Of a stretch of DNA of 64,000 nt, positions 9,593 through 56,402 are shown piece after piece. Positions within the stretch are counted from its first letter, which is position 1; every line of letters begins with the position of its first letter. The notes below the pieces were generated by a model. That model did not search any database and was not told where the DNA came from. It was given only the letters and a program-made list of their open reading frames with translations. Position numbers and translations under genes: made by a program. The DNA comes from Candidatus Pampinifervens sinense (GTDB taxonomy: Bacteria; Aquificota; Aquificia; Aquificales; Aquificaceae), in contig JAXSPP010000005.1 of NCBI GenBank assembly GCA_037927135.1, forward strand, positions 64,001 through 128,000, read 5' to 3'.

Positions 9593-11148
9593 ACGGTCCC
9601 TTCCCTTCTTAAGCTTTCCCTTGATATTATGTAGCTTTTTCTAAGCAGGGCTCTATTCAAAGCATCTACAAAGCCGTTTACACTTGCCCTTATTATGTCT
9701 ACATCCACACCCCTTCCGCTTGCCCTCACGCCATCTAGCTCAATAACAAGCCTTGATTCAGCTTGGGCATCTGTATTGGGTGTGAGGGCCTTTATGGAGA
9801 AGTCTAGCAGTTTGGGCTCTATTTCTAGGGCCTTCTGTATGGCCTTTATTACCGCATCCACAGGACCATTGCCTGTAGATGTGGCCGTCCTCTCTTCACC
9901 TTTAAAGCTCAAGACTACAGTGGCTGTAGGAAGGAGTTTGTCGCCAGTTTGAACTTGATAGTGTAATATCTTTATGGGTTCATCCTCTTCAGGCTTCATA
10001 AACTCTTCATAAACAAGGGCTTCAATATCTTCTTCGTATACTTCCTTTTTCTTGTCTGCCAAGGCCTTAAACCTTTCAAAGATCCTGTCAAGATCCTCTT
10101 CAGAAACCTCAAACCCTAGCTCTTTTAGCTTGCTTTTTAGCGCATGCCTACCTGAGTGCTTTCCTAGAACTATCCTGTTGGAAGGAAAGCCCACATCCTC
10201 TGGAGACATGATCTCATAGGTTAAAGGATTTGCCAAAACACCATGCTGGTGTATGCCCGACTCATGGGCAAAGGCATTGTCTCCCACCACAGCCTTATTA
10301 GGTTGTACAAAGCTTCCCGTTATCCTACACAATAGCCTACTGGTTTTGTAAATCTCCTTCGTGTTTATGTTGGTGTATAGGCCGCCAAAGAAGTCCTTCC
10401 TTACCTTAAGGGCCATAACTATCTCTTCTAAGGCTGCATTTCCTGCCCTTTCGCCTATACCGTTTATGGTGCACTCCACCTGCCTTGCACCGTGCTTTAT
10501 GGCCATAAGGGAGTTTGCCACAGCCATCCCAAGATCATCATGACAATGTACGCTTATTATGGCCTTGTCTATGTTTGGCACATTGTTCCTTATATCCTCT
10601 ATAAGCTTTGCGAACTCCTCTGGCACCGCATAACCAACCGTGTCCGGTATGTTTATCACCGTAGCTCCAGCCTTTATGGCAGTCTCTATAACCCTATAGA
10701 GGAACTCCCTTTGACTTCTGGTGGCATCCTCACAAGAAAACTCCACATCATCGGTAAACTTCCTTGCAAACTCTACAGCCTTCCTTGCCCTCTCTAGAAC
10801 CTCCTCTGGAGACATCCTTAGCTTGTACTTCATGTGTATCTCGGATGTGGCTATAAAGGTGTGTATCCTCTTTCTTTCTGCAGGCTTTAACGCTTCAGCG
10901 GCAAGCTCTATATCCTTCTCTAAGGCTCGCGCCAAGGAACATATCACTGGACCTTTCACTTCCCTTGCTATAGTCTCAATGGCTTCAAAGTCTCCCCTTG
11001 ATGCGGCTGCAAAGCCAGCTTCTATGATATCCACACCCAGCTTTGCAAGCTGATAGGCCATCTGTAGCTTTTCTTCTGTGGTCATAGAAAAGCCAGGAGC
11101 CTGTTCTCCATCCCTTAGGGTGGTATCAAAAATATAAACCCTTTCCAT
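9589..11148 (-). CDS. leuA: 2-isopropylmalate synthase
   Basis: [39 protein letters not shown] regulatory domain. Confidence 0.97.
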
Positions 11149-11168
11149 AGTTTTCCTCCTGCTAATTG

Positions 11169-11197
11169 ATAATAATTCGCAATTTAATCTTTGTCAA
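11169..11197 (-). promoter_or_regulatory. sigma70 promoter of leuA
   Basis: Minus strand TTGACA (11197-11192), 17-nt spacer, TATTAT. Confidence 0.75.
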
Positions 11198-11206
11198 GGC
11201 CTTTCT
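11197..11206 (+). repeat. Left copy of 10-bp target-site duplication AGGCCTTTCT
   Basis: Identical to 12753-12762. Confidence 0.9.
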
Positions 11207-12752
11207 GAGGGTGTTCCCAAAATCCACTTTACTTACCGGTTATGTTAAAATACCAAAAGATGATAACCATAAGCGCTAAGCTTTTATTCTCAAGCTATCA
11301 AGATAAGGAAAAGGTCTTAGACCTCATGAGAATATGGTCCTCGGCTATGAGATATGCTTACAAAAGACTTCTGGAAGGCATGGAAATAAACACTTTAAGA
11401 AAGTTAATCCAAAATGTGTTTGGACTAAACTCAAGATATTCACACTCAGCCATTGTTAAAGCCCAAGCCTTGATGAAAGTAAGAGAAGAGAAAGGAGAAA
11501 GCTTAAGGAAGGTTATATTTGGTGGAAGGGATATTTTCAGAAAACTGCAAAAGAGACATATAAACGGGAAAGACTATCAAAGGTTAAAAATACAGTTCCA
11601 AGAAAAGAGAAAAGGCAATCTCTATTCCATAGGACAAAAACACTCAAAAGGAAATCAAAACACAAGTATAGAGGTAAAAGAAGATGGAGCTTATCTTAGG
11701 ATAAACACAGGAGAAAGGCAATATGTATATGCCTTGATAAGTGCGGGGGATAGGATAGAGAAGATTAAAGAGATAGCCTTTTCTGGGAAGGCTTACTCTG
11801 TAGAACTAAAGCTAAGAGATAGCAATGTGTATGCTTACTTTACCATAGAGGAAGAATATCCACAGATAGAGATTACAAAAGCATATGGAGTAATAGGTAT
11901 AGACTTAAACGCCTATCCAAACCACATAGCTTGGGCAGAGACGGATGAGTATGGAAATCTCCTAAGCTATGGTGAAATAGCTATGCCAGAACTGGGAAGT
12001 GGAAATGGCAATAAAAGAGATTATTACACATGGATATACGCACATAAGGTTATAAGCTTAGCTAAAGAAAAGGGAAAGGCTATAGTGATAGAAAAGCTAA
12101 AGCTAACCAAAAACAAAAGAGGGGACTACTCTGGGAGAAAGGTAAGGAGAATACAGCATAACTTTGCCTATAGGAAGCTATTAGAAAGGATAAAGCTACT
12201 TGCAAAAAGAAACTGTATAGAGGTGATAGAAGTAAATCCAGCCTATACATCCATCGTAGGCATGTTAAAGTATGCACCACAATACATGGTAAGTAAGGAT
12301 ATAGCTTCTGCCTATGTGATAGCAAGAAGGGGCTTAGGACTAAAGGAAAAGGTGCCAAAGAATTATATGGAGCTTATAAGAAGGCTAAGTGTAGAAGGAC
12401 TGATGGAACTGAAAGAGTATGTAAAAGAGAAAGTAAAGAATGCCTATTTAAAAGCCAAGCATATTAAAGAGATAGAAGCTTTGATAAAGGTTTTAAGCCT
12501 TGGGAGTGAGCCATGGAAGGTATCTGAGCCTCTGGAAGGAACAAGCTTAGGTATCCGATTTAATCCATGGCGAGTTCTCAAGGTAGTGGTGCTAACCGCA
12601 CTCTCTCCTGAGAGGATCCTTAGAGACCTCTCTGTCCTGAAAGGGAAACTCTTTCAGGGCTTGTGGGGAGACCCGATATGGGCGCGAGCTCCTACTGCAG
12701 GGGGTGGGGGCGTAGTCTGTGTGAAAACACAGGCTATTTTTGAAACACCCTG
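11207..12752 (+). mobile_element. Non-autonomous TIR-bounded element carrying only a TnpB-like nuclease
   Basis: Left end GAGGGTGTTCCCAAAAT vs reverse complement of right end CAGGGTGTTTCAAAAAT (14/17 match); flanked by a perfect 10-bp direct repeat AGGCCTTTCT; no transposase gene inside. Confidence 0.85.
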
Positions 12753-12753
12753 A
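11242..12753 (+). CDS. tnpB: TnpB-related (Cas12f-like) RuvC RNA-guided nuclease; true start may be ATG 11260
   Basis: N-terminal SSAMRYAYKRL helix, RuvC-I GVIGIDLNAYP, RuvC-II AIVIEKL, VNPAYTS, RuvC-III SKDIASAYVIARRGLG. No CxxC zinc ribbon. An extended -10 (TGtTAAAAT, 11243-11251) lies 8 nt before ATG 11260. Confidence 0.88.
   Translation: MLKYQKMITISAKLLFSSYQDKEKVLDLMRIWSSAMRYAYKRLLEGMEINTLRKLIQNVFGLNSRYSHSAIVKAQALMKVREEKGESLRKVIFGGRDIFRKLQKRHINGKDYQRLKIQFQEKRKGNLYSIGQKHSKGNQNTSIEVKEDGAYLRINTGERQYVYALISAGDRIEKIKEIAFSGKAYSVELKLRDSNVYAYFTIEEEYPQIEITKAYGVIGIDLNAYPNHIAWAETDEYGNLLSYGEIAMPELGSGNGNKRDYYTWIYAHKVISLAKEKGKAIVIEKLKLTKNKRGDYSGRKVRRIQHNFAYRKLLERIKLLAKRNCIEVIEVNPAYTSIVGMLKYAPQYMVSKDIASAYVIARRGLGLKEKVPKNYMELIRRLSVEGLMELKEYVKEKVKNAYLKAKHIKEIEALIKVLSLGSEPWKVSEPLEGTSLGIRFNPWRVLKVVVLTALSPERILRDLSVLKGKLFQGLWGDPIWARAPTAGGGGVVCVKTQAIFETP
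12656..12752 (+). ncRNA. Putative omegaRNA-like scaffold overlapping the tnpB 3' end and right TIR (5' boundary unknown)
   Basis: Hairpins GCTCCTACT/GGTGGGGGC (12688-12711) and TAGTCTGTGT-GAAA-ACACAGGCTA (12713-12736) rely on G-U pairs and covary with the copy at 47512-47608. Confidence 0.65.
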
Positions 12754-12762
12754 GGCCTTTCT
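12753..12762 (+). repeat. Right copy of 10-bp target-site duplication AGGCCTTTCT
   Basis: Identical to 11197-11206. Confidence 0.9.
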
Positions 12763-14071
12763 AACACTTCACCTCCAAAAGCTCACACTCCATGCTGAAG
12801 GGTTTAGAACTTACCACTTTGACTTTTACTATTTTCCCAAGCAGATCTTCGCTTCCCTTCAGGCTTGCCCACCTGTTTGTCCTTGTCCTTCCGATGAGCT
12901 TGCCCTTTTCATATCCTTCAATAAGCACCTCTTGCTCAGTCCCTTCGTAGGACTTGGCTATCTCACCAAGTATTTTCTTTTGAAGCTCTAAGAGTCTTGT
13001 CATCCTTTGAGTTTTTATCTCGTCTGGCACCTGACCCTCCATGGAGTAGGCTGGTGTGTCTGGCCTTGGAGAGAACTTAAAGGAAAAGACCTGTTCAAAC
13101 CTCACCTTTTCCAAAAGGTCCAGCGTTTCTTCAAAGTCTTCTTCTGTCTCTGTTGGAAAGCCTACTATTATGTCTGTGGAGAAGGTGATGCCCTTCACAT
13201 AATGCCTCAACATATCTATCTTCTCAAGGTATTCCTCCTTTGTATAACCCCTGTCCATAAGTTTTAATATTCTTGTGGAGCCAGATTGCACAGGAAGGTG
13301 AAGGTGTTCACATACCTGAGGTATCTCTCCCATGGCCTTTGCTATGTTTTCTGTTAGGTCCTTAGGATGTCCTGTGGTGAACCTTATCCTTTCTACTCCT
13401 GGCACCTCTGCTACCCTGTAGAGGAGTTCCTCAAAAGGTATGCCAAGGTCTTGACCCCATGCGGTTACATTCTGACCTAAAAGGTGTATCTCCTTTACGC
13501 CATCCTCCACCAAGAACTTCACTTCAGAGAGGATGCTCTCTAGGCTTCTTGATCTTTGCCTCCCTCTTGTCTTTGGCACAACGCAATAAGTACAGTTCTT
13601 ATCACAACCCTTCATAACGGTCACATAGGCACAAAACTGGTTATCTCTTACTGTAGGATACTCCCATAGCTTGTCTTCATCCTCCGGTGGGCTTTCCAAT
13701 ATGGCTATGGCCTTGTAGCCCGCTTGGGCCTGGTGGATAAGCTCTGGAAGCTGGTGCATGTTAAAGCTGGAGAACATTATATCTACCATAGGAGCCTTTT
13801 CCAGAAGCTTTTCTCCCATCCTTTGGGCAAGACAACCGCACACACCTATGAGGGCTTTAGGATTCTTCTCCTTTATCTTCTTGTATTCTCCCAAATGGGA
13901 ATAGACCTTTTGATCTGGCTTTTCCCTAATGGTGCATGTGTTTATAAGGATAATGTCCGCCTCTTCCCAGCTTTTGGCAGGCTCATAGCCCATGCTTTGT
14001 AGTATGCCCCTAAGCCTTTCCGAATCGTTAAAGTTCATCTGACATCCAAAAGTTTTTATATAGTACTTCAT
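12761..14071 (-). CDS. miaB: tRNA-2-methylthio-N6-dimethylallyladenosine synthase
   Basis: TFGCQMN..DSE, NTCTIRE, GCDKNCTYCVVP radical-SAM motif, C-terminal TRAM domain; start at ATG 14071. Confidence 0.97.
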   Translation of the reverse strand: MKYYIKTFGCQMNFNDSERLRGILQSMGYEPAKSWEEADIILINTCTIREKPDQKVYSHLGEYKKIKEKNPKALIGVCGCLAQRMGEKLLEKAPMVDIMFSSFNMHQLPELIHQAQAGYKAIAILESPPEDEDKLWEYPTVRDNQFCAYVTVMKGCDKNCTYCVVPKTRGRQRSRSLESILSEVKFLVEDGVKEIHLLGQNVTAWGQDLGIPFEELLYRVAEVPGVERIRFTTGHPKDLTENIAKAMGEIPQVCEHLHLPVQSGSTRILKLMDRGYTKEEYLEKIDMLRHYVKGITFSTDIIVGFPTETEEDFEETLDLLEKVRFEQVFSFKFSPRPDTPAYSMEGQVPDEIKTQRMTRLLELQKKILGEIAKSYEGTEQEVLIEGYEKGKLIGRTRTNRWASLKGSEDLLGKIVKVKVVSSKPFSMECELLEVKC

Positions 14072-47390: not shown

Positions 47391-47476
47391 TGGTGGGGGT
47401 GGAGGGACTCGAACCCTCACGGCTCATCGCCGGCGGATTTTAAGTCCGCTGCGTCTACCAGTTCCGCCACACCCCC
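47391..47476 (-). tRNA. tRNA-Leu(TAA)
   Basis: Minus strand GGGGGTGTGGCGGAACTGGTAGACGCA-GCGGA-CT-TAA-AA-TCCGC, variable arm, GGTTCGAGTCC, ACCA end. Confidence 0.96.
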
Positions 47477-47511
47477 AATCTAATAATAATTATAGGCAAT
47501 TATTCTTCCCT

Positions 47512-47608
47512 CAGGGTGTTTCAGAAATAGTCTGCACCTTCACACAGACTACATTCCCGCTCCCTAAAGCGGGAACTGGTGCCCACAGAGGGTCTCCCCA
47601 CAAGCCCT
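47512..47608 (-). mobile_element. Orphan right end / omegaRNA-like scaffold of the TnpB element family
   Basis: Ungapped match to 12656-12752 (75/96 identical over 12657-12752 by manual count); ends in the same TIR (...GAAACACCCTG); hairpins conserved by compensatory changes. Confidence 0.88.
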
Positions 47609-47635
47609 TGACAAAAAATTTTGGGATTGTATATT
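47608..47635 (+). promoter_or_regulatory. sigma70 promoter of feoAB, overlapped by a palindrome
   Basis: TTGACA, 16-nt spacer, TATATT; inverted repeat TTTTGGGATT-N7-AATACCAAAA at 47619-47645. Confidence 0.65.
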
Positions 47636-56135: not shown

Positions 56136-56164
56136 ATAATATTTCAACTGAAGTGAAATGTCAA
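56136..56164 (-). promoter_or_regulatory. sigma70 promoter of the MCP gene
   Basis: Minus strand TTGACA (56164-56159), 17-nt spacer, TATTAT. Confidence 0.7.
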
Positions 56165-56168
56165 GCTG

Positions 56169-56382
56169 TTGTTAAAGCCCAAGCCTTGATAAGAAAATTA
56201 CAAAGGAGGCATATAAACGGAAAAGGTCTATCAAAGATTAAAAGTCCAGTTTAGGAAGGTAGGATTACGTTTATGCTTTGAAATGTGCCAAAAATTATAT
56301 GGAGCCTATAATATAGGCTAAGCATAGATGAGTTAAGGAAATGTGTAAGGGAAAGGTAAAGATAAAGGAAATAGAAACATTC
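56169..56382 (+). pseudogene. Heavily deleted relic of the same tnpB family
   Basis: 56169-56190 is identical to 11453-11474 (22 nt); following blocks resemble 11538-11598, about 11711-11741 and 12352-12482 in collinear order. Confidence 0.8.
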
Positions 56383-56402
56383 CGAGTGTTGGAGGAAGCG
56401 TT

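Follow-up and report, generated by a model that had tools for sequence, protein, structure and literature searches.

A TnpB-like element with IS5-like ends beside the -35 hexamer of promoter-like sequences in Candidatus Pampinifervens sinense

DDE-associated branches of TnpB have inverted terminal repeats and are accompanied by solo TnpBs with the same ends, apparently mobilised in trans, and TnpBs are especially common in Aquificae, as stated in the sections of Altae-Tran et al. (PNAS 2023, PMC10691335) drawn on here. The insertion sequence (IS) families IS200/IS605 and IS607 have neither repeats nor target-site duplications, and Fanzors sit in DDE transposons, according to the corresponding passages of a review (PMC13565253). 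Insertion near promoters was described for the Mutator-like elements TnGBS, ISLre2 and ISKra4, which integrate 15-17 bp upstream of the -35 box, and the orientation of the TnGBS type was attributed to the dissymmetry of its two repeats in the portions of that paper considered here (Guerillot et al. 2014, PMC3942029). The present analysis concerns a stretch of 64,000 nucleotides from Candidatus Pampinifervens sinense (Aquificaceae; contig JAXSPP010000005.1, positions 64,001 to 128,000), referred to as a whole as the window. This window probably contains a non-autonomous element, present as a single complete copy and two remnants, in which a TnpB/Cas12f-like gene lies between IS5-like ends and which is moved in trans and targeted to TGTCAA. 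The underlying observation, that copies lie next to the reverse complement of a -35 hexamer, is real and generalises well beyond these three sites. The interpretation offered in an initial annotation of the window is partly supported, being right on the insertion address and the intact promoter and wrong on the kind of transposase and the element ends.

Junctions and element ends in the window

The junctions (marked here by a slash) read CTTTGTCA/AGGCC at site 1 (11189-11201), TTTTGTCA/AGGG on the minus strand at site 2 (47616-47605) and ATGTCA/AG at site 3 (56158-56165). TGTCAAG is present at all three and, in each case, is part of the reverse complement of a promoter-like sequence that agrees with the consensus at 11 of 12 positions. 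On the opposite strand, TTGACA-17-TATTAT (11197 to 11169) faces leuA, identified by its HMGL-like, HCS_D2 and LeuA_dimer domains; TTGACA-16-TATATT (47608 to 47635) faces feoA/feoB; and TTGACA-17-TATTAT (56164 to 56136) faces a methyl-accepting chemotaxis protein (MCP)/HAMP gene. The initial annotation had described three copies that abut TGTCA/AG on the left. The strings are present as described, but they do not represent one shared element end: a true left end exists at site 1 only, whereas truncation on the left has reduced sites 2 and 3 to remnants with internal joins. Even at site 1 the element does not touch TGTCA, because a 10-nt duplication, AGGCCTTTCT (11197-11206), intervenes and the inverted repeat begins at 11207. 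The features of the three sites are as follows (ORF, open reading frame):

11169..11197, minus strand: leuA promoter-like site TTGACA-17-TATTAT, 11/12 consensus; its -35 is TGTCAA on the plus strand at 11192-11197
11197..11206, no strand: left copy of the target-site duplication AGGCCTTTCT, 10/10 against the right copy; its first base is the last base of TGTCAA
11207..11223, plus strand: left terminal inverted repeat GAGGGTGTTCCCAAAAT, 17 bp, from which related copies align
11242..12753, plus strand: single ORF of 503 amino acids (aa), TnpB-related, with RuvC residues D221/E284/D353 and without zinc finger
12622..12752, plus strand: structured, omegaRNA-like 3' region with consensus hairpins, overlapping the ORF end and reaching the element tip
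12736..12752, minus strand: right terminal inverted repeat, 17 bp, minus-strand reading CAGGGTGTTTCAAAAAT
12753..12762, no strand: right copy of the duplication AGGCCTTTCT, 10/10 against the left copy; it would start the putative guide
47512..47607, minus strand: site 2, solo right-end remnant of about 96-100 nt with the RNA-like part and the right repeat; TGTCAA kept at 47613-47608
56165..56390, plus strand: site 3, internal element scraps with both ends lost, joined to TGTCAA (56159-56164), the -35 of the MCP-gene promoter-like site

The sole full copy in the window, the element proper of site 1, therefore occupies 11207-12752. Its left side reads ...AATCTTTGTCA AGGCCTTTCT GAGGGTGTTCCCAAAATCC... 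on the plus strand (11186-11225) and its right side ...ATTTTTGAAACACCCTG AGGCCTTTCT AACAC... (12736-12767). Since the element has terminal inverted repeats and a target-site duplication of 9-10 bp, it is this duplication that stands between the motif and the element tip. The left and right repeats of this TnpB element are unlike each other. Elements of the IS200/IS605 type, including the IS1341 group, have a Y1 TnpA and no inverted repeats or duplication, and those of the IS607 type have a serine-recombinase TnpA upstream and likewise no repeats or duplication; the element at site 1 differs from both in its 17-bp repeats and 10-bp duplication.

The junction of site 2 connects TGTCA via AGGG with an internal point of the element, about 100 nt short of the right end. 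This AGGG is a microhomology, being both the start of the expected duplication and internal element sequence, and the right flank AGGGAAGAAT (47511-47502) equals the expected duplication. At site 3, TGTCA plus AGC adjoins internal sequence that lies about 240 nt inside the element. As a separate observation, the minus strand of site 2 would read, without the remnant, TTGTCA, 17 nt (AGGGAAGAATAATTGCC) and TATAAT just upstream of tRNA-Leu(taa) (47476-47391); the remnant lies inside this arrangement (47391-47613, minus strand) and has split the -35 of a likely tRNA promoter from its -10. The divergent feoA promoter, which uses the same near-palindromic hexamer, was spared.

Six copies were found in the genome of the window (G000): the three sites described above and the copies C6, C1 and C9. 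C6 is a miniature copy with both ends, reading CTTTGTCA/AGTTAAAGGG/repeat on one side and AGTTAGAGGA on the other, and it carries CTTTGTCAAG, identical to site 1 and at equal distance from the repeat. The TTGACA-17-TATAAT that this copy abuts (G000:C6:69932-70265, locus L003) precedes a 16S rRNA gene (Rfam SSU, 948.7 bits) by about 340 nt, and the promoter region of an rRNA operon is thus among the harbours. In C1, an old miniature copy, it is the other end that bears the motif, with TTGACA-17-TATGAT facing away from the right end. C9 has a full ORF with two stops and has lost its left repeat, with the flank TGGCA/GAGTCAGTCT against GAATCAGTCC on the right. Exactly the left inverted repeat is lost in three of the six copies (47512-47607; 56165-56390; G000:C9:4330-4400), which keep the hexamer together with 3-10 nt from the start of the duplication and have microhomologies of 3-4 nt (AGGG, AGC) at the junctions. 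These losses could be ordinary decay or could result from self-cutting at a TAM (target-adjacent motif) plus duplication.

Copies in relatives and the recognised motif

The comparison was extended to 90 genomes of the same bacterial family, in which the TnpB-like protein was matched in 42; of those named below, G050, G069 and G065 belong to the genus of the window and G030 and G076 to sister genera. Seven full copies of G050, a genome in one contig, gave the following junctions:

TGTCA/AGAAGGTAGG, 10/10 duplication, next to the repeat of an older copy
CGTCA/AAATTTATC
AGGCA/AGTAAGCTT, the complement reading TTGCCT, 17 nt, TATAAT
TGACA/ATCACATAA
TGTCA followed by 10 nt, only 4 of which recur on the right
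TGGCA, without duplication
right end abutting AGGGGAAGG/TGACAAAG, which in G050 is the leuA promoter; separate duplication of 9 bp

The last of these bears directly on site 1. Across the genus, the leuA promoter with TTTGTCAAG is conserved, and most of the leuA loci of 14 relatives are unoccupied there; one of these loci (L194) has a single AGGGGAAGG. The same leuA hexamer is occupied in the window and in G050 in opposite orientations, and these are therefore independent hits. The first copy listed (L042, G050:C1:660800-663400) is a full copy whose 10/10 duplication AGAAGGTAGG lies directly against the left repeat of an older remnant, and the same TGTCA was therefore used twice. The same anatomy is found in subfamilies at 40-45% protein identity, with TTGTCA/ATTTGAAGTA in G035 and TGGCA/ATATGATCTT in G030 (both with 10/10 duplications). 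A resolvase-domain ORF (G050:C1:292872-293246) was also observed 1.7 kb beyond the left end of L044, the copy without duplication, in the same orientation and not adjacent to it.

The motif was then counted across the family. TGKCA-N8-11-repeat occurs at 37 places in 11 of the 90 genomes and the reversed pattern nowhere, the repeat alone having 256 occurrences (both element ends counted) versus 6 for its reversed pattern. Among 113 unique ends that were not selected for the motif (both element ends counted; distance measured to the AGG of the repeat), TGKCA lies 9-12 nt from the repeat at 32, versus 0/113 in a control window shifted by 20 nt; at the same distance, NGTCA was found at 36/113 versus 0 and NGNCA at 49/113 versus 4. 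For 30 of these 32 TGKCA-bearing ends, the gap measures 10-12 nt. The enrichment anticipated by the initial annotation held in these ends, as it did in the additional copies of the window's genome (C6, C1 and, as TGGCA, C9), so (T)GTCA(A) is confirmed as a real insertion motif in G000, in G050 and family-wide. A loose form of the motif flanks 34 of 38 paired elements and is missing from 4 (10 of the 38 came from motif-selected loci); a duplication of 9-11 bp is present in 17 of the 38 and in 12 of 16 full-length copies from five genomes. Of these 16 copies, 14 have the loose motif to the left of tnpB, one has it only on the right and one lacks it.

Two observations concern individual flanks. 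The 214-bp miniature copy L068 (G069:C18:10631-13437) has inverted TTTGTCAAGGGGG on both sides and no duplication, as would be expected if two copies had undergone an exchange or if the site were double and palindromic. Three insertions in G030 (L141, L146, L148) share about 25 nt of flank (ATAGTCCAAAATAnGAnnnCTGTCAAGTCTT). The repetition therefore extends to the flank, be it a promoter present several times or some other small repeat, and these are not independent sites.

The insertion just upstream of outward-facing sigma70-type promoters, with the -35 hexamer intact, was likewise upheld by further copies and flank counts. The genome of the window contains 728 TTGACA, 108 of them outside ORFs of at least 150 aa, and TAnnnT follows at 16-18 nt in 43 of these 108 and in 78 of all 728. 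All five TTGACA-bearing insertion sites of this genome have TAnnnT at that spacing, as do 27 of 41 independent TTGACA flanks from all genomes (46 flanks before similar ones were collapsed). The remaining 14 lack a -10, and two copies (C9, L044) sit at TGGCA within the 3' end of a gene. It is concluded from the flanks that the recognised feature is the hexamer, with the consensus TGKCA/A, and that the promoter context mostly reflects which insertions survive. A residual preference for true promoters is possible.

The nuclease gene and the source of its ends

The 503-aa ORF matched no family in a local Pfam copy; the label PF27229 appears in precomputed annotation. Its matches to TIGR01765 and TIGR01766 ('TnpB-related') exceed the cut-offs of these models, and those to guided_TnpB and Cas12f2 fall short of theirs. 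In an alignment of 20 family members, D221, E284 and D353 are invariant, giving the split RuvC D-E-D triad, and no conserved cysteines were found between NPAYTS and KDIA, where a C4 zinc finger would lie between RuvC-II and RuvC-III. Such a loss is compatible with membership of TnpB/Cas12, because some large TnpB branches lack the C4 zinc finger in the account of Altae-Tran et al. consulted (PMC10691335). The family profile matches Cas12f1/TnpB structures over RuvC-II (E 1e-9); a single-sequence phmmer search of the PDB returned nothing. An AlphaFold2 model with a predicted local distance difference test score of 77.6 gave 45 top Foldseek matches at E<=1e-3, almost all of them Cas12f, Cas12k, Cas12g, TnpB or Fanzor2, with TM-scores up to 0.58, and the modelled overall fold (WED/REC/RuvC) agrees with the TnpB/Cas12 superfamily. 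Six intact copies show synonymous divergence (dS) of 0.18-0.54 and ratios of nonsynonymous to synonymous divergence (dN/dS) of 0.11-0.31, and the protein is therefore kept by selection.

The last ~130 nt of the element form conserved hairpins, in which 4 of 18 pairs are compensatory and a GGG...CCC stem closes on the final bases, and this RNA-like region survives alone at site 2. It appears to be omegaRNA-like, to judge from these hairpins. A scan of 11000-13000 with Rfam at E<=1 found no family, only a chance snoRNA match, and of four RNA runs, those with raw reads placed none on the element and the rest yielded just two short pieces of contigs, too thin to bear on expression. Since the motif stands 5' of the duplication, and duplication and right flank follow the RNA-like 3' end, it is plausible from this geometry and orientation that TGTCA is also the TAM of the putative nuclease. 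The orientation of TnpB copies could equally arise from the unlike left and right repeats, as in TnGBS-type elements.

The closest proteins outside the bacterial family, about 60% identical over 94% of the length, are from Caldanaerobacter, Thermoanaerobacter and Caldicellulosiruptor. Upstream of these Firmicute relatives lies an IS607-family serine-recombinase TnpA (NF033518, 226.8 bits), and inverted repeats around them were looked for and none found. The IS607-type loci of the closest outside relatives point to a change of mobility partner. In the solo IS607-type loci L208, L213 and L214 of Caldanaerobacter, copy similarity begins at GTCAAAACAGTTGA, preceded by GGAG, GGAA and GGGAG; GTCAA at the left boundary of serine-recombinase-type relatives as well may bear on the TAM of the nuclease.

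The initial annotation had proposed a Mutator-like enzyme of the ISLre2/TnGBS group. The ends instead imply the IS5-like DDE_Tnp_1 transposase of sister genera, which the window element does not encode. No Y1 transposase (PF01797) was found in G000, G050, G069, G065 or G074, control genomes responding to the same search; the serine recombinase PF00239 was absent from the window's genome and had two hits in G050, neither adjacent to a copy. Of the five genomes searched for PF01609 (DDE_Tnp_1), only G030 gave hits, which lie just inside the same repeats. There and in G076, an element of about 934 bp has GAGGCTGTTCTAAAAAT at both ends, encodes a DDE_Tnp_1 transposase of about 290 aa and shows a 10/10 duplication, GCGAAACAGT (L174); GAGGSTGTTYYAAAAAT ends both the TnpB elements and this DDE element, whose own two repeats are alike, unlike those of the TnpB element. 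Its ends and miniature derivatives in G030 adjoin (T)GTCAAG on one side or the other. The best NCBIfam models for the transposase are of the IS5 family, all below curated cut-offs (best 76.2 bits versus 140), and close homologues (at least 60% identity) occur in G030, G076, G073, G075, G082, G077 and G078. Relatives at 31-35% identity have the related repeats GAGCCYGTT..AAAAAAT. Three copies of the IS5-like element in G001 have 9/9 duplications next to TTGACA, AGTCA/A and TTGTA/A, and the TnpB-like query had no match in that genome. As the motif flanks a DDE-only element there, it is taken to be primarily the target site of the DDE transposase, and the repeats, duplication and target motif are most likely properties of an IS5-like DDE lineage whose ends the TnpB element borrows.

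It was also observed that the left repeats of several copies (C6, L042, L045, L046; 11207-11223 in the window) read GAGGGTGTGTCAAAAAT, with TGTCAA inside the repeat, and that TTGACAC lies 19 nt from the tip of the IS5-like element of G001; the target motif may resemble a part of the element's own end to which the transposase binds. Another gene behind the same repeat was considered and rejected, the solo repeats in L078, L060, L055 and L056 being followed by host genes.

The following mechanism can be proposed for the probable account given at the outset. An IS5-like (DDE_Tnp_1) transposase, supplied in trans now or in the past, would make a staggered cut of 9-10 bp in the target, beginning with the final base of TGTCAA (in the opposite strand, TTGACA). 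Such a cut would yield the duplication and leave the hexamer whole on one side. Since an intergenic TTGACA in these compact genomes would usually be a -35 box, surviving insertions would come to lie directly upstream of outward-facing promoters. The nuclease would take its guide from the duplication together with the right flank and recognise TGTCA as the presumed TAM, and it would cut unoccupied copies of its own site, the occupied one presumably being spared because the guide match ends after 10 nt.

A further step is more tentative and is held to be possible rather than likely, namely that the TnpB lineage left an IS607 partner for IS5-like ends that target the -35, that its TAM converged on TGTCA and that the RNA of a copy marks the empty allele for cutting and re-copying. 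A corollary would be that the TAM and the 10-nt duplication at the occupied left junction form a weak self-target, which would explain the loss of exactly the left repeat in three of six copies with TGTCA and the start of the duplication kept. Such an arrangement would parallel, in bacteria, that of Fanzors in DDE transposons, and promoters would provide the safe harbour.

Alternative readings and comparison with known systems

Several points weigh against the account of an IS5-like element that is moved in trans to TGTCAA. The promoter calls are matches to a consensus only. No close DDE homologue was found in G000, G050, G069 or G065, where the families searched were PF01797, PF01609 and PF00239 only; because no cognate transposase was found in these four, movement in the window's genus is deduced from other genera and would therefore be historical or due to an enzyme outside the families searched. 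Only about 17 nt of the ends are shared. Full-length TnpB copies show a strong orientation (14 versus 1), whereas the DDE ends of G030 carry the motif on either side (about 5 versus 10), and a symmetric target rule alone does not explain the orientation of the TnpB copies; this contrast was dropped as a proof of TAM function, the correspondence of the ends being uncertain and the counts small. Among the paired elements, 21 of 38, mostly miniature, have no duplication. The strict motif stands on the left in 9 of the 16 full-length copies, on the right in one and is absent from 6, and copies in G074 mostly have GGCA or nothing. Finally, related genomes are non-independent samples, and the 27 of 41 flanks with a -10 exceed an intergenic baseline of 40% that comes from one genome only.

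These points can be set against four other readings. It is unlikely that TGTCA is primarily a nuclease TAM, enriched by RNA-guided homing that retains copies with a TAM on the left and not by site-specific integration. The left-sided loose motif of 14 out of 16 full-length copies (on the right only in one), the duplication and right flank that directly follow the RNA-like 3' end, and a nuclease with intact triad under purifying selection all speak for such retention, but it would not account for the same motif at the same spacing around the DDE-only element and its miniature derivatives, nor for the three G001 copies in a genome where the TnpB-like query found nothing, and a fixed distance from motif to duplication cannot come from retention. 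It can hold in addition to integration at TGTCAA by an IS5-like transposase, not instead of it. A poorer chance is given to the TnpB-like protein being itself the transposase of an autonomous element, its RuvC domain, with an RNase H fold like that of DDE enzymes, making the staggered cut. It is the only gene in the element, with an invariant triad under purifying selection, and no Y1 or IS5-like transposase was found in G000, G050, G069 and G065, which hold from 6 to dozens of copies; however, an ordinary DDE element of sister genera has the same repeats, duplication length and target motif, the fold and profile matches are to RNA-guided nucleases, and relatives about 60% identical belong to IS607-type elements, in which the gene for mobility encodes a serine recombinase.

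Marginally less probable again is random integration followed by purifying selection that leaves copies upstream of promoters, with TGTCA as a by-product of the promoter consensus. About 90% of the genome lies in long ORFs, 43 of 108 intergenic TTGACA are promoter-like and a -10 is present at 27 of 41 motif flanks, as this reading would expect. It nevertheless leaves unexplained the single-base precision of the junctions, with a gap of 10-12 nt in 30 of 32 ends and 0/113 in the shifted control, the motif without a -10 at 14 of 41 flanks and its occurrence as TGGCA inside the 3' end of genes (C9, L044). That TGTCAAG belongs to a longer element end and not to the target is hardly credible. CTTTGTCAAG is identical in site 1 and C6 at the same distance from the repeat, and the miniature copy L068 has inverted TTTGTCAAGGGGG on both sides, but each copy has its own 8-10 nt between motif and repeat, which recur as a duplication at the far end, no relationship from one site to another is seen in the spacer and -10 beyond the motif, and element-free relatives carry TTTGTCAAG before leuA. 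The existence of these empty leuA sites refutes the longer end for site 1.

If integration at TGTCAA by an IS5-like transposase is correct, it would represent a second, mechanistically different transposon route to the space upstream of promoters, in which the -35 hexamer is read directly and the cut falls within it. It would also provide a bacterial case of TnpB changing partner from a serine recombinase to a DDE enzyme, a step assumed toward Fanzors, and it would predict TGTCA as the TAM of a compact, zinc-finger-less, thermophile-derived nuclease. For annotation, the elements would mark promoters, here those of leuA, feoAB, the MCP gene and a further gene, as well as the site that precedes 16S rRNA. 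Targeting of TTGACA itself by an IS5-like or TnpB element was not found reported in the literature searched, which did not cover the supplements of PMC10691335, and the window lineage may already be among the branches listed there.

The DDE-associated TnpB branches share with the window element a TnpB homologue inside DDE inverted repeats with its 3' end at the transposon end; one of those branches has an IS630-type partner, and the part of the work used here describes no IS5-like partner, target motif or promoter link (PMC10691335). The IS607 elements of Caldanaerobacter and Thermoanaerobacter have in common with it a TIGR01765/TIGR01766 protein of the same architecture and an ORF that runs to the 3' end, but they have a serine-recombinase TnpA and no repeats were found, in contrast to the IS5-like repeats and duplication of the window family. 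With the IS5 family, the presumed mobilising element shares its size of about 0.93 kb, a single DDE_Tnp_1 transposase of about 290 aa, terminal inverted repeats and a duplication, although it falls below all IS5 cut-offs and the window element has no transposase. TnGBS, ISLre2 and ISKra4 are, like the presumed case here, DDE elements that insert upstream of sigma-A/sigma70 promoters and tend to be oriented, but, in the portions of Guerillot et al. considered, they are Mutator-like and insert 15-17 bp upstream of the -35, whereas the window family has IS5-like ends, a staggered target cut that starts inside the hexamer and a TnpB-like cargo (PMC3942029). Fanzors in eukaryotic DDE transposons are comparable in that a TnpB-type nuclease resides in a cut-and-paste transposon with duplications and in the idea that TAM and target coincide, as put forward in the passages of PMC13565253 cited above. 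The window element differs from them in its bacterial host, in being known from sequence alone and in its long, variable duplication (9-10 bp), which would therefore be read by the guide and not as part of the TAM or scaffold.

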